The position numbers and the translations under genes are program-made. From Candidatus Thorarchaeota archaeon (lineage in GTDB: Archaea > Asgardarchaeota > Thorarchaeia > Thorarchaeales > Thorarchaeaceae), in the NCBI GenBank assembly GCA_003345545.1, contig PRDH01000015.1, forward strand, positions 1 through 64,000: a stretch of DNA of 64,000 nt. Reading direction: 5' to 3'. The notes beneath the pieces were generated by a model. The model saw only the letters and a program-made list of their open reading frames with translations. It was not told the origin of the DNA and did not search any database. Below are positions 8,529-22,805 of this stretch, piece after piece. Position 1 is the first letter of the stretch, and each line of letters starts with the position of its first letter.

Positions 8529-9485
8529 CTATATAACATGGGAGGACCCATCATTGTGCGTATGCACATCGGAAACCGACTGATTGAGCGGCTCAGTGAC
8601 ATCCTTTGGTCGAGAATCAACCTCTGGAAGTTCTGTTCTCACCCGGTCTCTCACTCGTTTTATTTGGAGAGCAAGAACATAGGAGAGACCTGCCAATATA
8701 CCAGCTATGGCGCTGGGGGAAACATAGACAGCGAATGAAGCCGTTATCCCAACGAGCTCAGCAATAAGGGCAATCATGAACACTGAGAAAATCACCCCTC
8801 TGACTGATTTTACAAGCTCATTGGATGCCGCTGCAGGAGCAACCAGTATAGCATAGACAAGAATCGCACCTACTGCCTTGGTAGCAAGTGCGATGGCTAG
8901 AGCTGAAACGATAAGCATGAGATAGTGATAACCGCGAGCATTCATACCATGAGCGACGGACCCTTCCATATCCACGCTGACATAGACGAATTCCTTGTTG
9001 AACATTAGAGTGATTATTCCAAGGAGAAAAGCTGTGCTTGTCAGCATGATGATATCAAAGTTGTTTAGAAGGAGGATATCACCTACCAGGTATCCCCATA
9101 TTTGAGGTACTCTGTATGGAGGTATGTAGTACATCAAGAAGACGGCAAGACTCATCGAGAGGGCAAAGGATACACCGACTGCAACCTCCATCTTCTGTGT
9201 GATGCCAGATTCTCCGGCATATCCTGTGAAAATGGATACAAGGACACTGAACAGGAGCGCCCCAAGAACAGGGTCAAACCAAGGAACAAGTCCGGATTCC
9301 TGAAGGAATATTCCGAGTGCAGTTCCTCCAAGTGCAGCATGAGCTACTCCAGAAGCCATGAAAGAGAGACCTCTGAAAACCAAGAAAGTACCACTTGCCG
9401 CAGCTATGACAGCAACGAGGATAGCTGCAAGCAATGCTCGCTGAAGAAAGGGACTAGTCATGATGACCTGAATTATATCAATCAT
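8529..9485 (-). CDS. ZnuB/TroCD-family metal ABC permease
   Basis: GTFLVFRGLSFMASGVAHAALGG, YLVGDIL, VGAILV...AP. C-terminus contains VHTHNDGSSH. Confidence 0.92.
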   Translation of the reverse strand: MIDIIQVIMTSPFLQRALLAAILVAVIAAASGTFLVFRGLSFMASGVAHAALGGTALGIFLQESGLVPWFDPVLGALLFSVLVSIFTGYAGESGITQKMEVAVGVSFALSMSLAVFLMYYIPPYRVPQIWGYLVGDILLLNNFDIIMLTSTAFLLGIITLMFNKEFVYVSVDMEGSVAHGMNARGYHYLMLIVSALAIALATKAVGAILVYAILVAPAAASNELVKSVRGVIFSVFMIALIAELVGITASFAVYVSPSAIAGILAGLSYVLALQIKRVRDRVRTELPEVDSRPKDVTEPLNQSVSDVHTHNDGSSHVI

Positions 9486-10284
9486 GTCGATCAAATCCTG
9501 AGTCGCGCGTTAGACAGTACCTGTGCCCAGAGTACTCCACTATCTTAGCTGTGGGCCCATAGACACTCTTGATCAGTTCGGGTTCCATTATTGAGCAGGG
9601 CTCACCTACTCCGATGACAGTGTTCTTCAGAAGAAGGACGTCGTGTACCATCATGTGTATGGGATTGAGGTCATGAGTAATCATGATGATACTGACATCG
9701 TTGTCACGATGGTATCGCCCAAGTGCATCAACAATGAGATCTTGGCTCTCTGCATCTGTTCCGGCGAGAGGCTCATCAAGCACAAGGACAGATCCTTCTC
9801 CAGCCAACGCTCGAGCCACAAGCACTCTCTGTCGCTGACCGCCAGAGAGCTCTGGGAATGGACGATTCCAGAGAGCGTCCATATTCACTTGGCGAAGTGC
9901 GTTCAGTGCCACCTCTTTATCTTTTGTAGATGCGATTCGTGGTGGGAGCTTCTTGAGTAATCTGCCCATGAGCACGATGTCCTTGACCTTCATGGGCACT
10001 GCCAGCTCAATCCTATCCCTTTGAGGAACATATCTGACTTGCTTTCGTATCTTGCTTGCATGCTTGACTGAGTCATGCCCCAGAACGCTGATTGTGCCCT
10101 GAGCAGGCTTGATAAGACCAAGCGCAGCCTTGATGAGCGTCGATTTGCCCGATCCATTGGGCCCGATAATCGCTAGGAAGCTAGGTGATTTTATCGAGAA
10201 GGACACATCATGAAGAGCAAGCTCTCCATTGGGATACCTGACAGCCAGACTATGCGCTTCAATAAGTGGAGATGCTTCCGTTAT
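9478..10284 (-). CDS. ZnuC-family metal ABC ATPase (probable ATA start at 10284)
   Basis: GPNGSGKST, YVPQ, LSGGQRQRV, LDEP, THDL. The frame stays open upstream of the track GTG and reads ITEASPLIEAHSLAVRYPNGELALHDVSF, the normal ABC N-terminus. Confidence 0.9.
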   Translation of the reverse strand: MTEASPLIEAHSLAVRYPNGELALHDVSFSIKSPSFLAIIGPNGSGKSTLIKAALGLIKPAQGTISVLGHDSVKHASKIRKQVRYVPQRDRIELAVPMKVKDIVLMGRLLKKLPPRIASTKDKEVALNALRQVNMDALWNRPFPELSGGQRQRVLVARALAGEGSVLVLDEPLAGTDAESQDLIVDALGRYHRDNDVSIIMITHDLNPIHMMVHDVLLLKNTVIGVGEPCSIMEPELIKSVYGPTAKIVEYSGHRYCLTRDSGFDRHD

Positions 10285-10682
10285 TTGCCACCTCCAATCA
10301 AGTTGACATCGACTTTGAGTACTTTCTTTTGCGATCTCAGTCTCTTGAAGAAGGCACGAACTATGTCAGCATCCGCATCCACAATCATCACCTCTGTGCA
10401 ATTGCCATCTCTCGTATGAGCATGAACCGTAGCGGTGAGGTGTTCTCTAAACTCATGTTGAACAGCGCTTACCTCATTGCCTTGGCCTCTATTATGGTAG
10501 AGGGCCGTGAAGACAGCTGTTACAGCTCCTTCTGCCTGTTCAAGAGTCCGATGTTCAGACATCAGCTTTTGTACTGCATGCCGAACGACCTCGGACCTAT
10601 TTGAAAACCGCCCTTCGTTCTGAAGGAGTTCTAACTGATCAAGATCAGAATCAGACATAGAGATAGCAACAATCGGCATCAT
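10281..10682 (-). CDS. NikR-family ribbon-helix-helix metal-responsive regulator
   Basis: N-terminal RHH (PIVAISM...FSNRSEVVRHAV); metal ligands QH...HAH...C-TEV conserved. Confidence 0.88.
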   Translation of the reverse strand: MMPIVAISMSDSDLDQLELLQNEGRFSNRSEVVRHAVQKLMSEHRTLEQAEGAVTAVFTALYHNRGQGNEVSAVQHEFREHLTATVHAHTRDGNCTEVMIVDADADIVRAFFKRLRSQKKVLKVDVNLIGGGK

Positions 10683-10708
10683 TAGCACCCTGTGACCTAT
10701 GCATCTGA

Positions 10709-10738
10709 GTTAGTAACTATTTCATAATCCTTAATAAC
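10709..10738. promoter_or_regulatory. Candidate NikR-type operator GTTAGTA-N16-TAATAAC
   Basis: Imperfect (6/7) inverted repeat with a 16-bp spacer, between the divergent regulator and SBP genes. Confidence 0.45.
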
Positions 10739-10798
10739 ATTTCAGAAAGAGCGTCATGCTTGACTGAATTCTCAAGCAATAGAAGTTCTGGTGGGATT

Positions 10799-11854
10799 AT
10801 GCTCAGGCACAGAGAGACCATACTTCTTTCACTCCTGTTGTTAGTAGTACCTCTCGTTACTAGCGGGATGACCCTGGATGCCCAAGCACAGGTTCAACCC
10901 GTGTATGAAGTAGCCGTATCGGTTGCTTCGCTTGCAGGTATTGTAGAAGGGATTGGAGGACAACTGATCACAGTATCTATTCTCATGGAGCAGGAAGCAG
11001 ATCCTCACTCATTCACAGTTACTCCTGCAGTATTGGCTATTGCAGAAGCCGCTGATCTATTGGTTTTCACCGGACACTTTCAGTGGGAAGAGGATATTGC
11101 CAATGAAACAGCAACCCCATTCATAACACTGCATGATGAGATTGCTTTGGAAACCTATGAGGATTATGGCGCTGCTCTTTCAGCTTTGCCTGGTGGGATA
11201 GAACTCGAGGGCCAGAGAGGCAATCCGCATGCATACTGGCTCTTGCCTAGGAATGCTATTGCAATTGCTAATGCCACGCGTGCAGCACTCTCAACACTAA
11301 ACGTGACTCTCAGCGAGTCCTGGAATTCCCATTTTGCGTCCTTTGTTCAGAAGATGAGTGATCTCCAGTCGCTCATAGCTTCACTGGATGAAACGCAAGG
11401 CTTCTCGAATATGCGAGCTGTAGCGGTTTTCCCTTCAGAAATATATGTTGCTGAGGCATTCGGAATCAAGTGTGACACTGTTCTTGTAGTAGAAAGCATC
11501 ACCATTTCTGGAGCCAAACTCTTGGAAGTCCAGGATGCCCTGCGGAATGGTACAGTTCAACTAATCATTGGCTCTGATGTTTCACAATTCCAGGCCGGAG
11601 GCGAATTCGCTTACCAACTTCAAGCGGATTATGGAGGAACTCTGATCTGGTGGAAGACACTGTTCTTTGCCGAAATGGACTACTTCGCACTGATGACCTT
11701 CAATCTTGGAGCCCTCGCATCCGGCTTAGAGGGTAGATCGGGCAGTACTGGCAGTGAAACGGTGAATGTTGCACTAGTAGTCCTTGTAGCTTCTCTCGGA
11801 ATAGTGGTGACAATCGAAACAATCATCTTGATTGTGAGAGCTCGAGCAGAGTAG
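10799..11854 (+). CDS. Cluster A-I (ZnuA/TroA-like) metal substrate-binding protein with C-terminal membrane anchor
   Basis: Signal peptide, ADPHSF and NPHAYW His motifs, C-terminal TM followed by RARAE. Confidence 0.85.
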   Translation: MLRHRETILLSLLLLVVPLVTSGMTLDAQAQVQPVYEVAVSVASLAGIVEGIGGQLITVSILMEQEADPHSFTVTPAVLAIAEAADLLVFTGHFQWEEDIANETATPFITLHDEIALETYEDYGAALSALPGGIELEGQRGNPHAYWLLPRNAIAIANATRAALSTLNVTLSESWNSHFASFVQKMSDLQSLIASLDETQGFSNMRAVAVFPSEIYVAEAFGIKCDTVLVVESITISGAKLLEVQDALRNGTVQLIIGSDVSQFQAGGEFAYQLQADYGGTLIWWKTLFFAEMDYFALMTFNLGALASGLEGRSGSTGSETVNVALVVLVASLGIVVTIETIILIVRARAE

Positions 11855-11865
11855 CTCAATCAAGA

Positions 11866-12189
11866 CTACTTGACATCAGTACCAAGGCGCAGGTTATAGA
11901 CAGCAGTTTCTAGTTCAGCAAGCTCGTCCTGTAGCTTTCGATATTTCTCCTCGAACTCATCGACCCCCACCAGTCCAGCCTTTTTATTGACGACGAGCTG
12001 TTTCAATGCCTTCTGGCGTTCGTGAATTTGGCTCTTGATATGCTCCCAGTCCTCTCGGTTGGACTCGACTGAATCACTCCAACTCGAACTGGATGCATCG
12101 TCCTGTTCCAGCTTGTGGACCAGGTCATCGAGGGATTCTTTGATCTTTGCCGACGCCTTTTTCGATTTATGTTCACTCAAAACCAACAC
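11866..12189 (-). CDS. Hypothetical coiled-coil protein
   Basis: Charged heptad-like sequence that fills the gap between convergent genes. Start may be TTG 12180. Confidence 0.65.
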   Translation of the reverse strand: MLVLSEHKSKKASAKIKESLDDLVHKLEQDDASSSSWSDSVESNREDWEHIKSQIHERQKALKQLVVNKKAGLVGVDEFEEKYRKLQDELAELETAVYNLRLGTDVK

Positions 12190-12244: not shown

Positions 12245-13180
12245 CTATCCTAGGAGAAAAGGTATGGCTGGGACAATCGGCAGGAGGAATAGGGTGCCAA
12301 CCGTCACAATAGTCGCAGCCTTTTGCGTATCAAGCTCGAAGCTCGCAGCGTAGACAACAGTCAGGACTGCAGGTGGCATTAGAGCCTCAAGGATGATGAT
12401 GGCTGTAGGCACATGTGATAGCCCGGAGAGAAGAATAACTGGTATCGTGATGAGAGGAACCAGTATCTGTCTTATTCCGACGACTTCCAAGGCAGCTCTT
12501 ATGTCAACGAGTGAGAATCGCACTCCTACGCCGATACCAACTGAGACCAGTGCAAGATACGTTGTCATGGGACCAGCAAATGAGAGCACGATTGCAAGGT
12601 CTCCTGTTAATTGAGCTCGTGTCGCAAACAAGATCAGTGCGATGATTGCTGCAAGAAAGGGCGGGAACATGAGCGCATCCTTCACGATTCTCAGCCGCTC
12701 CGATGTCTTGTTTCCGTACACAGCTCCTATCAATGATCCAAGTGTGGCGAGCAGTATCATTTGTGTCAGAGAGAATACAATGACAATTGGTAGCCCTGTG
12801 CTTCCTATGAACATCAAAACGAGAGGGAGTGGTATGAAGAGAGCGTTATTGAAGGTAACACACATGTAATAGACACCCCTTGTTGAGTCGTCGATATTGC
12901 TCCTCAATAACCTGATGTACATCAAAACGGGACCTAGAAGATCGACAAGGAGAGATAAGGCCACAATGAGAGGTACGTCAAGGGTGGAGTCAGGAGAAGC
13001 CGTGAGTAATGTGTGGATGAAGAGAATCGGAATCAGTAGATTGACGAGCAGAGCGGTGAGATACTTGTTGAACACTTTTCCTTTGCCTGATAGTCTGGCA
13101 ACTAGGAACCCAAGTAGAATGAGGCCATAGAAGAAGCCGAACTGCGCAACGATATCAAGTACTGTCTGAAAGCTAAGCAC
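12245..13180 (-). CDS. AEC (auxin efflux carrier, COG0679) family transporter
   Basis: About 10 TM; FNNALFIPLPL, PPFLA, ALMPPA motifs. Confidence 0.85.
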   Translation of the reverse strand: MLSFQTVLDIVAQFGFFYGLILLGFLVARLSGKGKVFNKYLTALLVNLLIPILFIHTLLTASPDSTLDVPLIVALSLLVDLLGPVLMYIRLLRSNIDDSTRGVYYMCVTFNNALFIPLPLVLMFIGSTGLPIVIVFSLTQMILLATLGSLIGAVYGNKTSERLRIVKDALMFPPFLAAIIALILFATRAQLTGDLAIVLSFAGPMTTYLALVSVGIGVGVRFSLVDIRAALEVVGIRQILVPLITIPVILLSGLSHVPTAIIILEALMPPAVLTVVYAASFELDTQKAATIVTVGTLFLLPIVPAIPFLLG

Positions 13181-13645: not shown

Positions 13646-15427
13646 CTACTTCACATCGATTCCTAACTCACGCAGAGCCACGTTTCGAGGCCTACCAGTG
13701 TTTCGGTCCCAATTTCTATAGTCATAGTAATCCCGTAACTGAAGCTCCAAATCTGGAACAAAGCCATCGGTCACGTTTTCAGCTTGAGGCGTTAAGAGAG
13801 GTTGTGGTAGACAATCATCCTGCGGAATAAACCCGCATCGTAGATTAAAGAGGCGCTTCATCGTGACTGCGCGGCTCCCGATCTTGAGTATATCTTCTAG
13901 TCGATATGAGGAACCTATCGCCAGATTCAGAAGGTCGAGAATCGTCTTCAAAGGAACAATTGCAAAGTGACACATAATGACGGAATCACAGAAGGCGCGG
14001 AAGTCCTGAGCTCGGGCAGCAGTATTCCCTTTGTCCTGATTCACCGATCGATCTCCAGCAGATATCCCAAGTTCTCGTACATCAGCACCCATATCAACAC
14101 TGTACATGTCTCCTTCAAGGTGGGTGGCTCCTCGTGAAGCAGTCGCATAGACTGTTGCCATGCCAGAAAAGGCTCGCGGGTCATGATTTGGAATCTCGAG
14201 CCCTTTCACATGAAGAACAAACTCCTCAGCTCCGTGAATCTTGCCAAGAGCAAGCGATCCTTCAGCAAGGATGTTACCGATCCCTTCCCGTCTGGATATC
14301 GCGTGGATGAGCTCAATCACGCCATCAGGATCAGCCCACCTTAGGCCGTAGTCAGCCTTTCCTGTATCACAGAGATGAGTGGCACAAGCAATGGTACTGC
14401 CACAGCTGATTGTGTCCATTCCATATTCGTTGCATAGACGATTCATCAGCACGATTTTCTTCAAATCCGATACCATGAGGTTGGTCCCAAAAGCAGCAAG
14501 TGTCTGATACTCGGGTCCTGCAACGTCCTCAAGATTGAACTCGGGTATGGATACTCGCCGTCCGCAACCAATTGGGCAGGAGTGACAAGCGCTTCTTCCT
14601 ACGAGCATCTCACTGAGCGACTTGGCATTGATGAGATCAGCATCATCAAACGCAATATCCTGAAAGTATCTGATTGGTACATCATTGAACATCATTCCGA
14701 TGTCGATGTACAATGCAGTACCCTGTTCGCGCAACATCCCCATTGCTTCGCCCAGAATCTTGGATGATGATAGTGCCAGCTCCTTAAACTCATCAGGGAA
14801 GGCAAGAGGAGTGTCGCGGGACCCAGAAACAGTAATCGCTTTCAGTTTCTTAGAGCCCATCACTGCTCCAAGGCCACACCGCGCAGCCACTCGCTCATCA
14901 TTTACGATACTCGCAAACTTGACGAGATTCTCGCCTGCAGGGCCAATACAGGCAACTTGCATCCTTCTCTGACTTTTCTTCAGAGCCTTCTGAGTTTCCC
15001 CGGTAGTCAATCCCCACAGGTGGTCCGCAGTCCTAAAGCTAGCGCGTCCATTATTCACATCAAGAACTAGAGGAGTTTCTGAGGCTCCGGTGACTAGAAT
15101 GCCATCAAATCCTGAGGCTTTCAGTTGAAATCCGAAGTGGCCACCTGCGTTTGATTCGCCCCAGAACCCCGTGATGGGGGACCTCCCACATACCACATGA
15201 CGCCCAGTGCAGGGAGCAAGGGTGCCAGTCAACGGGCCGGTCATGAACAGCAGCATATTGTTCGGGCCCAGAGGGGCACAGGTAGAGTCCAATAGATCAT
15301 ACAATAGACGGCCGGCATAACCACTCCCTCCCAAGAACAACGTGGCAACCTGCTCTTCAACCGTAATCACACTTGTTTCTTTCTTCGAGAGGTCTGCCAC
15401 CAGGATTTTACCGTGATAGCCGGGCAT
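13646..15427 (-). CDS. aor: Aldehyde:ferredoxin oxidoreductase family (W/Mo-pterin)
   Basis: SPITGFWGESNAGG, CIGPAGENLV, RCGLGAVMGSKKLKAI, CHSCPIGC, YGMDTIS, HVKGLE...DPR, RGATH. Confidence 0.93.
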   Translation of the reverse strand: MPGYHGKILVADLSKKETSVITVEEQVATLFLGGSGYAGRLLYDLLDSTCAPLGPNNMLLFMTGPLTGTLAPCTGRHVVCGRSPITGFWGESNAGGHFGFQLKASGFDGILVTGASETPLVLDVNNGRASFRTADHLWGLTTGETQKALKKSQRRMQVACIGPAGENLVKFASIVNDERVAARCGLGAVMGSKKLKAITVSGSRDTPLAFPDEFKELALSSSKILGEAMGMLREQGTALYIDIGMMFNDVPIRYFQDIAFDDADLINAKSLSEMLVGRSACHSCPIGCGRRVSIPEFNLEDVAGPEYQTLAAFGTNLMVSDLKKIVLMNRLCNEYGMDTISCGSTIACATHLCDTGKADYGLRWADPDGVIELIHAISRREGIGNILAEGSLALGKIHGAEEFVLHVKGLEIPNHDPRAFSGMATVYATASRGATHLEGDMYSVDMGADVRELGISAGDRSVNQDKGNTAARAQDFRAFCDSVIMCHFAIVPLKTILDLLNLAIGSSYRLEDILKIGSRAVTMKRLFNLRCGFIPQDDCLPQPLLTPQAENVTDGFVPDLELQLRDYYDYRNWDRNTGRPRNVALRELGIDVK

Positions 15428-16063
15428 TCAGAAGCCTCTCATCATCTCCCACACATCTTGCTCATCTTGAACTGCATCCTCAGGAAGAAGATGTGGAGTT
15501 CCGCTCTGTTTCGCAATCAGATATATTTCACTGGTCCGTTCAAGAACGAGAGCAAGGTGCAGAGCCTCTTTCAATGTCTTTCCAATACAGACAGCACCAT
15601 GATTGCCGATGAACGCAGCACTTCGATCCTCCATTGCAGCTGCAACGTTTTTCGCAAGTTCCTTGGTTCCGGGTACGGCATACTTGCTTACCCGTATCTC
15701 AGAACCAAGTTTCGGTACGACTTCATCTATTATTGGTGGGAGCGGTTCGTTCAAGACTGCCATCGCAGTAGCATAGAGACTATGTGTGTGGACTACCGCC
15801 TTAGCGTCCTTTCGAGTGTTGTAGAGCTCAAGGTGCATCTTGGTTTCAGTACTGGGATTCTTGGTACCTTCGATAACATTACCATTCATATCTAGAACGA
15901 CCATATCGTCACTGTTCATCTCAGTATAATGAATGGAACTGGCTGTTATGACCACATGGTTGCCCAGTCGGATACTGACATTGCCGGAGGATCCAATTAC
16001 TAGGTTCTCCTTCACCATCTGTAGACAGATGTCCAAGACTTCTTTCTTTGCATCTTCGTACAT
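15428..16063 (-). CDS. Class II aldolase/adducin family (FucA-like)
   Basis: GSSGNVS, PSTETKMH, VVHTHS, NHG metal ligands. Start set to ATG 16063. Confidence 0.92.
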   Translation of the reverse strand: MYEDAKKEVLDICLQMVKENLVIGSSGNVSIRLGNHVVITASSIHYTEMNSDDMVVLDMNGNVIEGTKNPSTETKMHLELYNTRKDAKAVVHTHSLYATAMAVLNEPLPPIIDEVVPKLGSEIRVSKYAVPGTKELAKNVAAAMEDRSAAFIGNHGAVCIGKTLKEALHLALVLERTSEIYLIAKQSGTPHLLPEDAVQDEQDVWEMMRGF

Positions 16064-16065
16064 GC

Positions 16066-17565
16066 TCACGCACCGTCGCAAAACATACTGGACCATTTGG
16101 AGAAGTAGGACTTGTATAAATCTGCCCGTTCGTCAGGATTAGTAGCGGACTTCCACTTGACCATTGCCTTAGCCGCATCCATTAGTCTGGAGTATTGACC
16201 AGCCCCTGTCGACGCGCATATTGCTGCGCCCAGAAGACTGCCCTCTGGCTGAATCGGAGTATGCACAGAACGTCCAAGGACATTAGCAAGCATTTCAGGC
16301 CAGATCCGTGACTGTGTCATGCCTCCAATTGTCTTGATGCAACTAGCCTGCTGATGGGCTTCTAGCTGTTGACAATTCCCTCTCACTGCATAGGCGATGT
16401 TTTCTAGGACTGCATGTATCATTGCAGCGGAATTCAGGGGAGTCACTTGAGGCAGAGCTGGCTGTGGAAAGACCATCTTGGCTTGTTTGACATCAGTGAT
16501 CTGTTGACAGTTCATTATACTGGGTCCCAATGCTACGAAGGTCTCATGGCTTCCTGGAGGAATGCCCGTGAGTATCCTGTCAAGATGCTTCAACGTGTCC
16601 CTGATGCAGCTCTCTGTGTCCTTGGCACGTTCACAGAGGAGTCGAACAACCCAGTTAAGGTAGGCACCAGTCAAGGTTGCATTACTCTCAAGTACCCAGT
16701 TGTCAGGTATCATGTGGCAGCCTGTCCAGATCTTTTGAGATGGGTCACAATAGAACTTGTCCAGAATCATCATCACAGGTGCAGTGCTCCCAGCTATGAC
16801 AACAATCTCCCCGGGTTGAGCGTCACTTGCTAAGAGTGCACAATGAGCATCTGCACCGCCCTGAGCAATTGAAAGTCCTTTTGGCAGTCCACATGCCTTA
16901 TGCGCCTCTGGAGTCACCTCACCTGTGATGGTTCCGGTCTCATGAATCTCTGGCAGAATCTCGCTACTGACGCCGACAGCCTCGGTGACTTCATCGCTCC
17001 ACTTGCCGGTCCGAATGTTCATGAAACCTGTAGCGCTGCCGGCTGACGGATCCGTGGAGAAGATACCGCCGAGCCTATAGGCTATCCAGTCGTTGATAGG
17101 CAGTACATGAGCTATTGACTCAAAGACCTCTGGCACTTCCTCTTCGAACCAAGACAGTCTTGCAGGTGAAAACATGAGCGGCGGCCAGCAGCCAGTGATC
17201 TCATGGTACTTCTCCCCGATAGACTCTTCGATTATGTACTGGGTCATGGCCCCGCGCGCATCAACATTGGGTCCTGCATAGACCTCTACTCCTTCCCTAT
17301 CGACAAAGACCACACCATGTCGTTGGCTTGTGGTGGACACAGCTAAGATATCGGAGGCCTTCACTCCAGAGGTCTTGATTGCCTCTTTGACAACTGTGCA
17401 TATCAAGTGCCAGAAATGCTCTGGGTCAAACTCCTTTGCTATCTCCAAATGGGTCGGAGTAGTGTAGTTCCAAGGCCGCCTACTGATTCCTAGTGGCTCG
17501 CCTTTCGTACCAGAAATCATACAGCGCACACCGGTAGTACCTGCATCTATTGCTGCGACTACCAT
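16066..17565 (-). CDS. FGGY carbohydrate kinase, YoaC/LsrK-like subgroup
   Basis: IDAGTTG, TSQRHG...PNVDARG (NxDxR instead of the usual WxDxR), GGAD, IGGMTQS. Confidence 0.88.
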   Translation of the reverse strand: MVVAAIDAGTTGVRCMISGTKGEPLGISRRPWNYTTPTHLEIAKEFDPEHFWHLICTVVKEAIKTSGVKASDILAVSTTSQRHGVVFVDREGVEVYAGPNVDARGAMTQYIIEESIGEKYHEITGCWPPLMFSPARLSWFEEEVPEVFESIAHVLPINDWIAYRLGGIFSTDPSAGSATGFMNIRTGKWSDEVTEAVGVSSEILPEIHETGTITGEVTPEAHKACGLPKGLSIAQGGADAHCALLASDAQPGEIVVIAGSTAPVMMILDKFYCDPSQKIWTGCHMIPDNWVLESNATLTGAYLNWVVRLLCERAKDTESCIRDTLKHLDRILTGIPPGSHETFVALGPSIMNCQQITDVKQAKMVFPQPALPQVTPLNSAAMIHAVLENIAYAVRGNCQQLEAHQQASCIKTIGGMTQSRIWPEMLANVLGRSVHTPIQPEGSLLGAAICASTGAGQYSRLMDAAKAMVKWKSATNPDERADLYKSYFSKWSSMFCDGA

Positions 17566-18564
17566 CTAATCGTATACCTCCGGATTCAGAATGTTCTTTG
17601 GTCGTTTCCCTCGGACAAATGCTACGATGTTCTCAACGATGATTTTTGACTGTCGTTCTATTGTTTCCACAGTGTTGCTTCCCATGTGAGGCATGACGGT
17701 GACGTTATCCAGTTCGAGAAACGCATTATCACAGTCGACCGGCTCCATGGAGAACACATCCAGTCCGGCACCTGCAATGGCTCCTGCCTTCAATGCGTTG
17801 AGAAGTGCATCTTCATCTGTGACTGATGCTCGTGCCGTGTTAATGAAGATGGCAGTCTTCTTCATCAGATTAAATTCCCTTGCGCCCAGCATTCCCTGGG
17901 TTTCGTCGGTAGGTGCACAATGAACTGTCACAATATCCGACTCGCCGAGAAGGGTGTCAAGACTCACAGACTTTGCGCCCACTGCACGTATGCGCTCCTT
18001 AGCCACGTAGGGATCAAACACCAAGAGCTTCACACCAAAGGAAACAAGCCGCTTCGCAACTTCAAAGCCGATATTTCCTAGACCTATGATTCCGACAGTT
18101 CTGCCGTTCAACTCAAAACCAGTGAGCTTGGTGTACATTCCTGCAAAGTCTTTGAAGTCGTTGACAAAGAAGTCATCCTTGAGCAGACGCTCTGCTGCGT
18201 TGACTTTCCGAGCCTGACTGAGCATCAATGCAATGGCCAGCTCGGCAACTGCTACAGTATTCCTACCTGGTACAGCAATGACCGGAATTCCCTTCGCTGT
18301 TGCTGCGTTGAGTGAGATGTTGTTAGGTGAGCCTCGGACAGACCCAACAAGCTTGATCCTGGTCTGTTCGAGTACCGGTTCCTTGATTTCATCACCCTCG
18401 ACGATTACAATGTCATACTCTCCATCTCTGAGTGTCTTCAGGAGTGAGTCACCCATGTGCAGCTTGCCCGTTTCAAGCCAACTGCGATAGTCAATCTCCA
18501 ATCCTTCGTCACGCAGTCGTTTAAGGCCGGACTCAGAAAAAGGAGCAGTAATTAGGACTCTCAT
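17566..18564 (-). CDS. D-2-hydroxyacid dehydrogenase family, YoaD-like
   Basis: VLITAPF, RGSPNN, PGRNTVAVAE, GLGNIG, INTAR, LDVFSMEP, PHMG. Confidence 0.9.
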   Translation of the reverse strand: MRVLITAPFSESGLKRLRDEGLEIDYRSWLETGKLHMGDSLLKTLRDGEYDIVIVEGDEIKEPVLEQTRIKLVGSVRGSPNNISLNAATAKGIPVIAVPGRNTVAVAELAIALMLSQARKVNAAERLLKDDFFVNDFKDFAGMYTKLTGFELNGRTVGIIGLGNIGFEVAKRLVSFGVKLLVFDPYVAKERIRAVGAKSVSLDTLLGESDIVTVHCAPTDETQGMLGAREFNLMKKTAIFINTARASVTDEDALLNALKAGAIAGAGLDVFSMEPVDCDNAFLELDNVTVMPHMGSNTVETIERQSKIIVENIVAFVRGKRPKNILNPEVYD

Positions 18565-18722
18565 GTTATGCCTCCGAGGATGCGAATCAAGAGATATACG
18601 ATACTGCCCTTTAAACGTTGATTGGGAGTCGTGGGGCAGTTTGCCGCGCAGACTCCGATGCAGTTCAAAGATTGTCCACGCCTTATATTCATTCTATGCA
18701 TCCATATGACTCGTGAAAAACA

Positions 18723-19469
18723 ATGTCAGAATCTGCTATCACAATAACAAATCTAACAAAACGGTTCGATGATATAACAGCTATTGAGAATCTCAGTCTT
18801 GAAATTGGCTGGGGCGAGCTGTTCGGCATTCTCGGGCCCAATGGTGCAGGTAAGAGCACGACAGTCAATATTCTCAACACTCTTCTGAAACCGACAGATG
18901 GCTCAGCCACGGTCGATGGCCACGACGTCGTGTACGATCCGGAAGGCGTTCGAGAAGTAATCGGTGTTTGTCCCCAAGAACCAGCTTTCTATAGGTTTCT
19001 TACGGGTGAAGAGAATATCATCCTGATGGGCGAGATGCATCTCGTCCCTAGCGATGTCCTCAAGGAACGTGTCAAGACCATGGCTGAAAAGATAGGCATG
19101 GAGGACCACATCAAAAGGCGTTCTAAGGATTACAGCGGGGGAATGATTCGTCGGGTCAGTATGCTTATGGCGTTGATAAACAACCCGAAGATTGCATTGC
19201 TCGATGAACCAACGGTCGCAATGGACCCAAACTCCCGTCGAGCAGTATGGGACTTCATTCGCGAACTGAAAGCTCAGGGCAAAACGGTCATCCTGACTAC
19301 GCATTACATGGAGGAGGCTCAGGAGCTCTGCGACAGAGTAGCCATTATTGATAATGGATTGCTGATTGAGATTGGATCACCTTCAGAGCTAGTGGAGAAG
19401 CACAAGGTGAAGAACCTGGAAGAAGTCTTCCTGAAACTGACCGGAAAGAAGCTGAGGGAGGCTGTTTAA
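18723..19469 (+). CDS. ABC-2 exporter ATP-binding protein
   Basis: GPNGAGKST, YSGGM, LLDEPT, TTHYMEEA. Confidence 0.93.
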   Translation: MSESAITITNLTKRFDDITAIENLSLEIGWGELFGILGPNGAGKSTTVNILNTLLKPTDGSATVDGHDVVYDPEGVREVIGVCPQEPAFYRFLTGEENIILMGEMHLVPSDVLKERVKTMAEKIGMEDHIKRRSKDYSGGMIRRVSMLMALINNPKIALLDEPTVAMDPNSRRAVWDFIRELKAQGKTVILTTHYMEEAQELCDRVAIIDNGLLIEIGSPSELVEKHKVKNLEEVFLKLTGKKLREAV

Positions 19470-19471
19470 AG

Positions 19472-20632
19472 ATGAATCTACGGAGAATACTGGCTCTGAC
19501 AAAGAAGGAGCTGAAGAAGACCACAAGAGAACCTGCAGTTCTCTTCCTTCTGATTATATTTCCAATCATGATTACATTCGTGTTTGGTCTTGCATTCGGT
19601 GGAATCGGAGGAGGAACCGCAACAAGCTTCGATGTGGGTGTCCTGAATCTGGATGCTACAAGCCCTCAAGCCGATTGGAGTCTTGCATTTGTAGACAATC
19701 TGACTGCATCTGAGGTCTTCGTCACGCGTGCGTATAGTGACAATGATTCTGGGCATTCAGCACTCATTCAGGGCGACCTTGATGCATTCATCATCATTCC
19801 TGAGGGATTTGGTGACAGTGTTGCATCGTATTATGGATCGCCGCTCGACCCAAGTGCGTGGACAAACTCGACCATTGAACTCTATGTCGACAGCGGGTCT
19901 CAGATGGCAGTGTCAGCCATTCCTCCTCTTGTCAAAGAGGTCTTGATGAGGACCCTCTTCGGAAACGATGCAATGACGATCATTCTACCTGTTGAGATTG
20001 GAAACCTTGGCTTAGTTGAGTCAAGCGCTCTCACCCAGTGGGATTTCATGGCTCCAGGAATCTTTGCCTTCGCTGCCATATTCATGACAATGATTGTGGC
20101 TCAGACGATGACTGTTGAGAGGGATGAGGGACTCCTGAAGAGACTAAGAACAACGCCTGCTTCATCAGCAGACTATATGATTAGTCAGACCGTGTCCTAT
20201 ATGATCATTGCATTAGTGCAGGTCGCGTTGGTCCTAACATCATCATTCGTGATAGGTTATCGACCGGCAACGGGAATTGCAGGAGTTGCATTTGCCTTTG
20301 TAATTACTTTTGCGTTTTCACTGGTCGCAGTTGGATTCGGTCTAATATCTGCCACAGTTTCCAAGTCCGCTGAATCGGCCACAGGTGTGAGTTTCGTTTT
20401 CATCATGCCACAGATGTTCTTGGGAACATTCATGCCTCTCGGTGGAGCGACAGAGATGATCTCCAAGTTCATTCCAAGCAAGTATGTCACTGAGGCAATA
20501 ACGACTCTATTCCTGAGAGGTGCACCGATGACTACTCCTGTTATCTGGATTGACCTAGCCATTGTATCAGTCATCGGATTCTTGCTCCTAGCTATAGGAG
20601 TCATTCTGTTTGAGAGATACGGTTCTCGTTAG
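19472..20632 (+). CDS. ABC-2 exporter permease
   Basis: N-terminal TM, extracellular domain, ERDEGLLKRLRTTP, then about 5 further TM. Confidence 0.9.
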   Translation: MNLRRILALTKKELKKTTREPAVLFLLIIFPIMITFVFGLAFGGIGGGTATSFDVGVLNLDATSPQADWSLAFVDNLTASEVFVTRAYSDNDSGHSALIQGDLDAFIIIPEGFGDSVASYYGSPLDPSAWTNSTIELYVDSGSQMAVSAIPPLVKEVLMRTLFGNDAMTIILPVEIGNLGLVESSALTQWDFMAPGIFAFAAIFMTMIVAQTMTVERDEGLLKRLRTTPASSADYMISQTVSYMIIALVQVALVLTSSFVIGYRPATGIAGVAFAFVITFAFSLVAVGFGLISATVSKSAESATGVSFVFIMPQMFLGTFMPLGGATEMISKFIPSKYVTEAITTLFLRGAPMTTPVIWIDLAIVSVIGFLLLAIGVILFERYGSR

Positions 20633-20659
20633 GAGTCCCCCGGGGGACTCCCTGTTTTT
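20632..20659 (+). terminator. Palindromic hairpin with T-tract
   Basis: GGAGTCCCCCGGGGGACTCC (perfect 20-bp palindrome) followed by CTGTTTTT, right after the permease stop. Confidence 0.7.
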
Positions 20660-20717
20660 CTATTAGAGTTATTAGGAGGTAACAATACGTGGATGTGAAC
20701 GAATTTGAGGTGAGTGA

Positions 20718-21395
20718 ATGAGCTCTGATGAAAGCGGGACAGATAATGATATGATTGAGAAAGCGAAACAACTTCTCCTGCTCGCAGATCTGGTTGACAA
20801 GTACCCGAAGGTAGTCTCGCGTAGAGTGGGAGGTCTAGTCTATCTCCTAATTGGTGGCGGGATCTCGTTCGCCACATTGATTCTTATGTCGCTTCAAGAT
20901 TTGCTTGGACCCGGAGATCCTTTTCTGGTCAACGTGGGTTTCGTGGTATTCAGCCTCGTTCTTTCATGGGTCATTGGCTTTAGACTGATTGCTCCCCTTA
21001 CACGTTCATACCCAGTAGAACCTAGCTCATCTGAAGGTGGAAGACTGGTCTATGCACTATGGGGAGTCCTTGGAGTAGCCATTGTGTTATCATCACTGGT
21101 GATATTTCAAATGGGATTAGCAGCACTATTCCCACCAACACTCCAATTCATAATGGGCTGTGGTTTCACAGCCAATTATGTCATGGGAAGAAGAGCAAGT
21201 GATTTAGATTTCTATTCTAGGGAGCACATCTACTTTGCAATTGCGATCTTTCTCAGCATAGTTCCAATGTTGATAGTTCCGGCTGCTGCATACGCAATCC
21301 TAATCGTAGTGAACATGGGTGGAATATACAGTATCGGCATATACATGCTAATTGCTGCTGAAAGAATTCTCTTGGAGAGCAAAAGGCAGGGATAG
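20718..21395 (+). CDS. Hypothetical membrane protein (about 6 TM)
   Basis: Hydrophobic segments, GAGGTG RBS, paired with the downstream wHTH gene. Confidence 0.75.
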   Translation: MSSDESGTDNDMIEKAKQLLLLADLVDKYPKVVSRRVGGLVYLLIGGGISFATLILMSLQDLLGPGDPFLVNVGFVVFSLVLSWVIGFRLIAPLTRSYPVEPSSSEGGRLVYALWGVLGVAIVLSSLVIFQMGLAALFPPTLQFIMGCGFTANYVMGRRASDLDFYSREHIYFAIAIFLSIVPMLIVPAAAYAILIVVNMGGIYSIGIYMLIAAERILLESKRQG

Positions 21396-21397
21396 GA

Positions 21398-21775
21398 TTG
21401 AGTTTTGGTGGGGGCCTCCTGTCTGCGTTGGCAGGACTTATGAATGAAGACCGTGAGACCTTCGTCCCAGCGAGACTTTCAATCCTCTCATACCTGTACT
21501 TCACTCGGACAGCCAAGTTCACTGACCTGCAGAAGACACTGAATCTCACATCTGGGAACTTGTCAAGTCACCTGCGGAAGCTTGAATCACTTGGGCTGAT
21601 CAGAATCTCAAAACGATTTGTTGAACTCAAACCTACCACACTAGTTGTGATTACCCAAGAGGGTGCTGCGCGCGTGAGAGCGCAGTTGCTAAAGATGCGA
21701 GAGCTCGTCGCTGCAGCGATGGAAGAAGAGTCCATGGCACATCCTCAGAGTGCCAAGAGCGTTGCAGAGCTATAG
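21398..21775 (+). CDS. Winged-helix transcriptional regulator (HTH_34/ArsR-MarR-like)
   Basis: ARLSILSYL...FTDLQKTLNLTSGNLSSHLRKLE...KPTT...ITQEG. Confidence 0.88.
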   Translation: MSFGGGLLSALAGLMNEDRETFVPARLSILSYLYFTRTAKFTDLQKTLNLTSGNLSSHLRKLESLGLIRISKRFVELKPTTLVVITQEGAARVRAQLLKMRELVAAAMEEESMAHPQSAKSVAEL

Positions 21776-21784
21776 CGCAATATG

Positions 21785-22117
21785 CTATACGAGCAACTTC
21801 TGGAGTTTAAGGAGGTCTGGAACCTCACCTACAGTCTTCAGCTTGCCAGATGAATAGGCAGACATTGGGCTCTCGGTCTTGTTCATTATTCCAAAGAAGA
21901 CACTTGTGTCCATTGTCACCTTTAGCTGTGAGTCTATCTCTCCCTCCGCAATCTGCTCGAGCTTGGCATCCCCGATTTTCATGTATACCTTCAGGTCTAT
22001 ATCAGGAAAGATGAATTGGACAGTCTTGTTATAGCCCTCGAACCTGCGTTGTATCTTGGGATCCTTGAATCGGTCTCCAAGAGATTTCAGCTGCGCCAGT
22101 ATCTTTTCTTTTGTCAT
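21785..22117 (-). CDS. SCP2 sterol/lipid-binding domain protein
   Basis: SPMSAYSSGKLKTVGEVPDLLKLQ; resembles 13294..13632. Start set to ATG 22117. Confidence 0.85.
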   Translation of the reverse strand: MTKEKILAQLKSLGDRFKDPKIQRRFEGYNKTVQFIFPDIDLKVYMKIGDAKLEQIAEGEIDSQLKVTMDTSVFFGIMNKTESPMSAYSSGKLKTVGEVPDLLKLQKLLV

Positions 22118-22229
22118 TCCGACACCGTGGTGCCAATTCACAAAGGACAAGTTATAGTTTATGAATAGCTTGACCGACGATGCCAGGGTTTCGTCATACG
22201 GAGATGGCATCGTAGGTTCCAGCAAAAGA

Positions 22230-22805
22230 CTATTTCATTCTGCTTTCACCGTAGAAGACCTGACCTAGCTTCTTCATGGCATCTCGAATGCAGTCTTTCT
22301 TCCCACTGACCTGTAGATACCGTTCTCCATCTAGAGAGATATTCACTCCGCAGTCCTCTGCAATCTCAGAGACAACCTCTACTGGAACATCTTCAGGAAG
22401 CCTAATACGGAAGAAATCTACTTGCTTGTCTCTCGGTATATCTGAGATTGGCACTTGTGGCTCGGGCTTGTACTTCTTACTCTTGCCCTCCATTGCTGCG
22501 TCAAATCTTGCTTCCCAAGTGTTTCGATATTTGACACCCCCATTTTCCTCTGCCCAGACCATGAGTGTACTTCGAAGTCGTTGTATCTTGTTTTCCATCT
22601 CAATCTGAAGCTGGGTGTCAGCGTCACATTGACCTTCTGATCTCATCTCACTCCCAAAGGAACGAAGATACTCGATGCTCATCTTTGAGTTTCGAAGGTC
22701 AGCAAAAGTCAAGTCAGGGATGAAGACCTCTCTCTCCTTCAAAGCTCCCAATAGATCATTCAAGACCATCCACCCCGCAAGAAGACCATCCAATGAGACC
22801 ATCAT
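22230..22805 (-). CDS. DUF2096-like protein
   Basis: W-MVL-NDLL-L...IP...LR N-terminus and C-terminal RIRLP...IAEDCGV...V-G; adjacent to hdr genes as in methanogens. Confidence 0.7.
   Translation of the reverse strand: MMVSLDGLLAGWMVLNDLLGALKEREVFIPDLTFADLRNSKMSIEYLRSFGSEMRSEGQCDADTQLQIEMENKIQRLRSTLMVWAEENGGVKYRNTWEARFDAAMEGKSKKYKPEPQVPISDIPRDKQVDFFRIRLPEDVPVEVVSEIAEDCGVNISLDGERYLQVSGKKDCIRDAMKKLGQVFYGESRMK

Follow-up and report, generated by a model that had tools for sequence, protein, structure and literature searches.

In the catabolism of L-fucose and L-rhamnose by Escherichia coli (FucK-FucA and RhaB-RhaD, with AldA/FucO), a kinase of the FGGY family and a zinc-dependent class II aldolase yield dihydroxyacetone phosphate (DHAP) and an aldehyde, which is then oxidized or reduced. 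The DHAP shunt and the disposal of 5-deoxyribose (MtnP or MtnK, MtnA and Ald2; DrdK-DrdI-DrdA) also use a class II aldolase, which cleaves a 5-substituted ribulose-1-phosphate to DHAP and an aldehyde; to our knowledge, neither MtnK nor DrdK is an FGGY kinase. Processing of autoinducer-2 (AI-2) by LsrK, LsrG and LsrF likewise results in DHAP plus a two-carbon (or R) fragment, and in Bacillus subtilis a dehydrogenase of the 2-hydroxyacid dehydrogenase (2HADH) type is paired with an FGGY kinase in the S-box-controlled yoaD-yoaC-yoaB operon, next to which we know of no aldolase, aldehyde:ferredoxin oxidoreductase or SCP2 gene. The function of YoaDC has only been guessed at (PMC2885750). The present analysis deals with a 64,000-nucleotide stretch from a Candidatus Thorarchaeota archaeon (assembly GCA_003345545.1, contig PRDH01000015.1; the whole stretch is hereafter called the window), in which genes for an atypical dehydrogenase (DH), an LsrK-like kinase (KIN), a class II aldolase (ALD) and an aldehyde:ferredoxin oxidoreductase (AOR) follow one another. 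This gene set is a variant of the routes that lead through a kinase and a class II aldolase to DHAP and an aldehyde, and differs from them in its SCP2 partner, in an atypical 2HADH that is obligatory and in a last step linked to ferredoxin. We consider it reasonably probable, from gene content and motifs, that these genes belong to a conserved catabolic module in which the terminal part of a polyol- or ketose-like compound is converted to DHAP and an aldehyde, and we propose with moderate confidence that the full module would comprise SCP2, DH, KIN, ALD, AOR and an AEC carrier, beside an ABC-2 transporter.

When set beside the systems described above, the module resembles fucose and rhamnose catabolism in its kinase and aldolase pair, but it has an LsrK-like kinase, no isomerase, an obligatory 2HADH-type dehydrogenase together with SCP2, a ferredoxin-linked AOR and an aldolase without the Tyr113 of FucA. 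The similarity to the DHAP shunt extends to the genome assembly (G000; 2.69 Mb, 93% complete), which has MtnA, MTAP and one class II aldolase, and to ALD itself, which matches DrdA in the Protein Data Bank (PDB; entry 6btd, 5-deoxyribulose-1-phosphate aldolase, 121 bits); however, the kinase family differs, the locus holds no isomerase, DH and SCP2 are additional, and the module is absent from a near-complete relative that keeps MtnA. Although LsrK is the closest characterized relative of KIN, the module has a dehydrogenase and a metal-dependent aldolase where the Lsr system has the LsrG isomerase and the LsrF thiolase, and LsrG, LsrF, LsrACDB and LsrR are missing from the window. Formally, the proposed scheme may be regarded as a more reduced parallel to AI-2 processing, set one oxidation level below it, as the Lsr route ends in DHAP and acetyl-CoA and the module would end in DHAP and an aldehyde. 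The yoaDCB operon resembles the module in combining an FGGY kinase with a dehydrogenase of the 2HADH type, and MFS genes occur in some module loci (G036, L084, L088 and L090), whereas an S-box was found at none of the 20 module loci searched.

The original prediction described four co-directional genes separated by 0-2 nucleotides, and this layout was confirmed on the minus strand, where the junctions read, in the order DH to AOR, TAG directly followed by ATG (0 nt), TGA-GC-ATG (2 nt) and TGA directly followed by ATG (0 nt). The motifs quoted for the kinase (TSQRHG at residue 79 and PNVDARG at 99) and for the dehydrogenase (VLITAPF at 3, YRSWLETG at 26 and VRGSPNN at 76) were present as well. 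All 12 loci inspected from the same genus kept the order DH-KIN-ALD-AOR, as did a second Asgard family (G035, 40-47% identity), while KIN occurred at 60% identity or more in 22 of 24 same-genus genomes, with orthologues of 55-88% identity across the relatives labeled Candidatus Thorarchaeota. Three further Asgard genomes carried DH-KIN-ALD, and in another (G036) the order was DH-KIN-MFS, ALD lying 2 kb off. Scanning a single genome from each species with a 12-sequence kinase alignment returned 30 related loci; DH, KIN and ALD were consecutive in Thorarchaeota, Hermodarchaeota, 'Promethearchaeota', Baldrarchaeum, Jordarchaeum, one Thermoplasmata metagenome-assembled genome (MAG) and several Bacillota, including 'Ca. 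Darwinibacter acetoxidans', and KIN-ALD pairs were seen in Anaerolineae and one deltaproteobacterium. Moreover, 301 genomes were drawn evenly from the phylum to which one of the Bacillota carriers belongs, and 12 of them contained a kinase homologue (E <= 1e-70). Eleven of these were new, and in nine the DH-KIN-ALD triad was present; the remaining two, large genomes both, combined a SorC/LsrR-like regulator by the kinase with a divergent ABC transporter, an lsr-type setting in which DH and ALD are lacking. The four-gene linkage thus recurs outside the window, the triad extends far more widely, and the association of the module genes is beyond chance.

A quick maximum-likelihood tree with a midpoint root separated all 31 kinases with module or fusion context (SH-aLRT 92) from the two kinases with Lsr context and three paralogues; within this tree the archaeal kinases formed one clade (96). 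Additionally, a search of representatives at 50% identity recovered proteins of 1281-1481 amino acids with the architecture FGGY-2Hacid_dh-SCP2-Aldolase_II (P0176, P0202 and P0208), as well as KIN-DH (P0234) and KIN-ALD (P0214) fusions; the named members are Dehalococcoidia/Chloroflexota MAG proteins, in which SCP2 lies between the DH and ALD parts. All four domains, SCP2 included, are therefore tied to one process. No functional study of the module was found in literature searches that included yoaC/yoaD, FGGY+SCP2+class II aldolase and lsrK+Asgard, and the catabolic route announced in the original prediction is real and conserved and appears to be hitherto undescribed. None of DH, KIN, ALD and AOR reached an NCBIfam equivalog cut-off.

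In the scheme that we favor, KIN would phosphorylate a terminal primary hydroxyl group, in keeping with the chemistry of its family, and DH would use NAD(P) to oxidize the neighboring carbon to the keto level, giving a 2-keto-1-phosphate of the ketose-1-phosphate type, although this step and its order relative to the phosphorylation are tentatively assigned. ALD would then split the bond between C3 and C4 to release DHAP and an aldehyde (R-CHO), a step backed by its metal and base residues and by the accompanying aldehyde enzymes, and AOR, following the chemistry of its own family, would convert R-CHO to R-COOH with reduction of ferredoxin. The resulting acid may finally be exported by the AEC carrier.

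The release of an aldehyde draws its support from the gene beside ALD, which encodes AOR in the Thor family, in G035 and in the Bacillota loci L062, L084, L088 and L090, a lactaldehyde-reductase-like iron-dependent alcohol dehydrogenase (Fe-ADH) in L059, L065 and L087, and an NAD-dependent aldehyde dehydrogenase in L053 (Thermoplasmata). Because three unrelated aldehyde-handling enzymes occupy the same position, ALD very probably releases an aldehyde, and the predicted logic of aldol cleavage to DHAP followed by oxidation of the aldehyde by AOR gains from their interchangeability. By its domains, [4Fe-4S] ligands and closest similarity, the enzyme in the window is classified as an AOR sensu stricto: the cluster cysteines are found in CHSCPIGC (CxxCxxxC) at 281-288 and as Cys480 and Cys486, and the protein (P0004) matched P. 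furiosus AOR (1aor) with 377 bits, FOR with 273 and WOR5 with 191, lying nearest to the broad-specificity AOR clade. Genome G000 yielded 13 AOR-family matches; one open frame of this family, of 1218 amino acids at C17:1905-3746, may be a fusion. The module is flanked by NfnA/SudB-like and NfnB/GltD-like genes in two further archaeal families (L029, 6104-6958 and 12559-14025; L055, 7148-8032 and 12655-13842), and such a pair, of the ferredoxin:NADP oxidoreductase type, could recycle ferredoxin reduced by AOR. In one Bacillota genome (L088, 11862-12362), the module AOR is followed immediately downstream by a tRNA gene and a group II intron (domains 1-4).

ALD was read from a long open reading frame (15428-16096) with its probable start at Met12 (16063), as the orthologues begin MYE... 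It scored 181 bits against the FucA-type NCBIfam model NF005302 (cut-off 264) and 130 against TIGR01086 (cut-off 400), and its PDB matches include FucA of S. pneumoniae (4c24) besides DrdA. The three zinc-binding histidines and the catalytic Glu73 of FucA are kept (HTH at 103-105, NHG at 165 and PSTE at 81-84). At the site of Tyr113', which in FucA comes from the neighboring subunit, ALD has Asp124-Glu125 (PPIIDEVV), whereas the FucA enzymes of E. coli and S. pneumoniae and DrdA have Tyr; the site holds Asp/Glu in 18 of 21 aligned sequences and Thr, Ser or Ala followed by Glu in the other three, Tyr being found in no aligned ALD orthologue. We take this acidic stretch to be reminiscent of Asp120' of AraD and of the glutamate of APIP/MtnB. 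An aldolase is nonetheless favored over an epimerase, dehydratase or decarboxylase because aldehyde enzymes adjoin ALD. A second module aldolase, 55% identical to the ALD of the window (P0003), lies just past a convergent SCP2 gene in an Asgard locus (L049, 14315-15073).

These results also bear on the use of the module for acid sugars of the threonate/erythronate type, in which DH would oxidize C2 of an aldonic acid before an isomerase and KIN act, ALD would be a decarboxylase or isomerase (OtnC- or LerI-like) and AOR a mere neighbor. Such a route, which would suit the chemistry of the DH family, is very unlikely in our view: ALD does match the model of 3-oxo-tetronate-4-phosphate decarboxylase (OtnC), but its 118 bits are far under the cut-off of 250 and under the FucA-type scores, and a decarboxylase would require none of the three aldehyde-handling enzymes that track ALD. 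IclR and MFS partners agree with an acid substrate, and a xylose-isomerase-like TIM barrel protein, of the fold family to which OtnI presumably belongs, is encoded directly upstream of DH in L062 and L092, yet the window and most loci lack it.

The kinase provides the starting point for the substrate named in the original prediction, a sugar derived from S-adenosylmethionine (SAM) or resembling AI-2. In NCBIfam, KIN scored highest against LsrK (282.5 bits), followed by XylB (204), GlpK (139), FucK (98) and RhaB (41), although it stayed below the LsrK equivalog cut-off (NF008187, 528 bits); in the PDB, E. coli LsrK (5ya0) reached 218 bits against 116 for XylB and aligned with KIN from end to end, with CSMREG...ANVDARA at matching positions. 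Language-model features (ESM Atlas), which give family names only, also put LsrK nearest. Because of this order of scores, KIN is assigned to an LsrK-like type distinct from the LsrK equivalog and from ordinary fuculo-, rhamnulo- and xylulokinases, so that the grouping with ordinary sugar kinases contemplated in the original prediction was not observed.

As a special case of the scheme, a 5-deoxy- or 5-methylthio-pentose derivative of SAM origin, or the LuxS product 4,5-dihydroxy-2,3-pentanedione (AI-2), would give DHAP and acetaldehyde or methylthioacetaldehyde, the latter two being oxidized by AOR. The proximity of KIN to LsrK and the likeness of ALD to DrdA and FucA-type aldolases fit such substrates, which we nevertheless regard as unlikely. 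For AI-2 the expectation found little support, as LuxS was not found in the 93%-complete genome, none of LsrR, LsrACDB, LsrF and LsrG was among the window neighbors, KIN lies far under the LsrK cut-off, and the Lsr-context kinases stand without DH and ALD outside the module group of the tree. For a SAM-derived sugar the outcome was mixed. G000 encodes MtnA (354 bits) and MTAP (276.5 bits), both above their cut-offs and unlinked to the module, and ALD is the only candidate for a DHAP-shunt aldolase, since no other gene of the class II aldolase family was found in that genome; besides, a deaminase of the MtaD/DadD type lies near the module in three Bacillota loci, two of which add a lactaldehyde-reductase-like Fe-ADH, L059 having in addition a Bmp nucleoside-type binding protein and a DeoR/LsrR-type regulator. 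On the other hand, no SAM riboswitch was found in the window or at 19 other module loci, two or three being present elsewhere in each of five Bacillota genomes tested, and MtnA co-occurrence is uninformative because all 41 relatives have MtnA-like genes, even one whose 99%-complete genome lacks both KIN and ALD. The deaminase was missing from nine further Bacillota triad loci and was rejected as a universal partner, a phosphorylase/isomerase route would require neither KIN nor DH, and SCP2 would be left unexplained.

The best NCBIfam score of DH was with phosphoglycerate dehydrogenase (TIGR01327; 256 bits against a cut-off of 454), its nearest kin in NCBIfam and the PDB being type III phosphoglycerate dehydrogenases and glyoxylate reductases. 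Its motifs were judged on an alignment of 19 orthologues against a published classification of 2HADH enzymes (PMC6303947). The triad of the family is kept in all orthologues, as Arg245 (NTARAS), Glu274 (LDVFSMEP) and His293 (PHMGS). In the SERA and PDXB groups, an Arg-Ser motif in the beta3-alpha3 loop holds the phosphate (PMC6303947), whereas DH has VEGD where SERA has V-R-S, the Glu being invariant in the 19 orthologues; DH is not regarded as a phosphoglycerate dehydrogenase because this phosphate-binding Arg is absent. A second difference concerns the [VAST]-Gly backbone pair that holds the substrate carboxylate in 2HADH enzymes (PMC6303947): the substrate loop R-G-S-P-N-N-I-S of DH replaces the canonical x-V-G-x-D, the orthologues follow the pattern R-[GDAS]-x-[PA]-x-[NE]-[IV]-[DS], and the position of the canonical Gly is taken by S, A, N, D, T or E and preceded by an invariant Arg77. 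Phosphoglycerate dehydrogenase and glyoxylate reductase were ruled out as identities of DH by cut-offs and motifs together. By these features DH is classified as a distinct 2HADH subfamily, for which a simple 2-hydroxyacid or 3-phosphoglycerate is an unlikely substrate and in which the new invariant loop Arg could bind phosphate.

The place of DH in the pathway also decides how an ordinary ketose route is to be valued, in which KIN would form a ketose-1-phosphate, ALD would release DHAP and a 2-hydroxyaldehyde (glycolaldehyde, lactaldehyde or glyceraldehyde), AOR would produce the 2-hydroxyacid and DH would come last, yielding a 2-oxoacid (glyoxylate, pyruvate or hydroxypyruvate). DH would then perform the canonical chemistry of its family, in line with its similarity to glyoxylate/hydroxypyruvate reductases (234 bits in NCBIfam; PDB match 2dbq), and the AEC carrier and MFS transporters nearby (MFS in L084, L088 and L090) would suit acids. 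IclR-type regulators, for which glyoxylate and other small acids are frequent effectors, adjoin the module in three Bacillota loci. We find this order of steps doubtful, and DH is placed before ALD rather than after AOR because it stays fused or adjacent to KIN and ALD without a neighboring acid-forming enzyme, as in the Fe-ADH loci L059, L065 and L087, the Chloroflexota fusions and the KIN-DH fusions, and because its carboxylate-binding loop has been rebuilt around the new Arg with loss of the conserved Gly (PMC6303947). Moreover, an aldose isomerase is missing in most loci.

The original prediction took the four genes for a complete pathway, and this was not borne out, because SCP2 genes, the AEC carrier, the ABC-2 operon and the fused megaproteins show that the four genes are not the whole system. 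The first SCP2 gene of the window (SCP2a) is convergent with AOR, 13 nt separating the stop codons, its PDB matches are the SCP2 domains of SCPx and MFE-2, and its place is kept in ten related loci (L021, L022, L034-L036, L038, L039, L044, L049 and L051). Orthologues of the second (SCP2b) stand directly upstream of DH on the same strand in the Thorarchaeota and Hermodarchaeota loci L043, L045-L050 and L052, in L053 (Thermoplasmata) and in three other loci of archaea (L029, L055 and L057). In the window, SCP2b is located between an Hdr cluster, ended by a DUF2096 (KH-like) gene (22230-22805, minus strand) that SCP2b follows immediately, and the ABC-2 operon, instead of beside DH as in the other Thorarchaeota and Hermodarchaeota, which looks like a local rearrangement. 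Altogether, SCP2 adjoins or is fused to the module in three phyla. The AEC carrier follows AOR in 24 Thor-family loci, directly and on the same strand in L043 and L045-L050, and may either export the acid product or import the substrate; the gene for a coiled-coil-like protein of 107 amino acids is kept after it in 24 loci. The ABC ATPase and permease genes adjoin the module in 23 Thor-family loci, 15 of which also have the multi-transmembrane and HTH_34 genes, a synteny that suggests a functional link between the ABC-2 operon and the module. The SCP2 linkage and fusion and the ABC-2 transporter are the reason why a substrate or aldehyde with a hydrophobic part is suggested for the archaea and Chloroflexota.

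At its most specific, this suggestion leads to SCP2 holding an amphiphilic lipid while DHAP is clipped from its polyol tail, for instance from the C32-C35 tetrol of bacteriohopanetetrol, with a C32 aldehyde and, through AOR, a C32 acid as products. SCP2 is adjacent to the module in Asgard and Thermoplasmata and fused between DH and ALD in Chloroflexota, the exporter-type ABC-2 transporter and multi-transmembrane protein are conserved beside it in the Thor family, AOR lies nearest to enzymes of broad specificity, the carriers are sediment and wetland anaerobes, and a terminal tetrol would suit, on chemical grounds, the order kinase, dehydrogenase, aldolase. We still judge this special case improbable, since the Bacillota versions, without SCP2, point to soluble substrates and an AEC carrier suits small organic acids more than a C32 acid; FGGY kinases acting on lipids are, moreover, not known to us. 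The Bacillota module loci have ribose-type or Bmp-type binding proteins with two-domain ABC ATPases (CUT2-type ABC transporters in the case of the ribose-type proteins), ECF modules, MFS carriers, regulators of the SorC/DeoR/LsrR or IclR type and a zinc-dependent polyol-type dehydrogenase, and these transporter genes suggest a soluble substrate such as a sugar, polyol or sugar acid. A tail-clipping role of the SCP2-linked module in sediment anaerobes, with bacteriohopanepolyol or another polyol-tailed lipid as substrate, is quite improbable; if true, it would provide an enzymatic origin for the C32 hopanoic acids, which are said to dominate recent sediments.

Several points weigh against the cleavage of a polyol- or ketose-like compound to DHAP and an aldehyde that we favor. 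The absence of Tyr113 from ALD and the acidic residues in its place recall epimerases and dehydratases of the same fold, and ALD may be an isomerase, epimerase, dehydratase or decarboxylase. Enzymes of the 2HADH family normally use 2-hydroxy or 2-oxo carboxylates and not polyol phosphates. The action assigned to DH and its place in the sequence of steps are where the scheme is weakest. With 13 AOR-family genes in the genome, the adjacency of AOR could be partly opportunistic, and the synteny within the Thor family is partly inherited and not independent evidence. Furthermore, the absence of SCP2 from the Bacillota loci argues against one common hydrophobic substrate, and the different lineages may apply the same core chemistry to different compounds.

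The features of the locus are listed in Table 1. The divergent spacer upstream of DH contains a TTTAAA box and a GGAGG 7 nt upstream of the DH ATG, and an Rfam scan of its 158 nt gave no family at E <= 1. A scan of the window from 12 to 22 kb for riboswitches and leader RNAs returned only a sub-threshold match to sR12, an archaeal C/D-box sRNA family, inside the ABC-2 permease gene (20184-20248, minus strand; 22.9 bits against a gathering score of 38, E = 0.22), which is probably due to chance. The locus was found nearly letter for letter in wetland metagenomes, and contigs from RNA libraries of two wetland studies were 99-100% identical to pieces of the DH, KIN, AOR, SCP2a, SCP2b, AEC and ABC genes; these contigs cover scattered pieces of the locus, the uncovered parts carrying no meaning, and are a weak hint of expression in the wetland samples because of possible DNA carry-over. 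Farther along the window, positions 8529-11854 encode a ZnuABC-type metal transporter (ABC-3 permease, ABC ATPase and ZnuA-like binding protein), with a NikR-like regulator (10281-10688) among its genes. Two Bacillota loci have a DUF1152 protein and a YczE-like membrane protein after ALD (L059, 12240-13226; L065, 1839-2825); DUF1152 is absent from G000 and was ruled out as a universal partner of the module, and a literature search on DUF1152 found no functional study.

Table 1. Module genes and neighboring features, with coordinates in the window and the evidence for each assignment.
Feature	Coordinates	Strand	Evidence
Coiled-coil-like protein, 107 aa, after the AEC carrier	11866..12189	-	Pfam: no match; transmembrane scan: no segment
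AEC (Mem_trans) carrier downstream of AOR	12245..13180	-	Pfam Mem_trans 4e-16; about 10 transmembrane-like segments
SCP2a, small SCP2 lipid-carrier-type protein, 112 aa	13294..13632	+	Pfam SCP2 1e-10
AOR, tungsten-type aldehyde:ferredoxin oxidoreductase	13646..15427	-	593 aa; AFOR_N 1e-73, AFOR_C 7e-104
ALD, Zn-dependent class II FucA-like aldolase	15428..16063	-	Pfam Aldolase_II 1e-53
KIN, LsrK-like FGGY kinase	16066..17565	-	499 aa; Pfam FGGY_N 6e-45, FGGY_C 6e-17
DH, atypical D-isomer 2-hydroxyacid dehydrogenase-family protein, first operon gene	17566..18564	-	332 aa; Pfam 2-Hacid_dh_C 6e-57
Divergent intergenic (promoter) region, 158 nt	18565..18722	.	Read from sequence
Divergent four-gene operon	18723..21775	+	Pfam, transmembrane scan
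ABC ATPase	18723-19469	+	Pfam
ABC-2 permease	19472-20632	+	Pfam
Multi-transmembrane protein	20718-21395	+	Transmembrane scan
Winged-helix regulator HTH_34	21398-21775	+	Pfam
SCP2b, second SCP2 paralogue, probable start near 22117	21785..22225	-	Pfam SCP2 4e-08

Overall, neighboring genes encode this enzyme set in no fewer than four phyla of archaea and bacteria, and in Chloroflexota it is found as fusion proteins of about 1300 amino acids. The coupling of its AOR step to ferredoxin suggests that it serves energy metabolism in anoxic sediments. The identity of the substrate would assign a function to a new 2HADH subfamily and to a new clade of LsrK-like kinases, would correct the automatic 'autoinducer-2 kinase' labels given to these archaeal genes, and might explain the yoaDC-type gene pairs of bacteria. 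Besides, it would show what Asgard archaea take from their surroundings.

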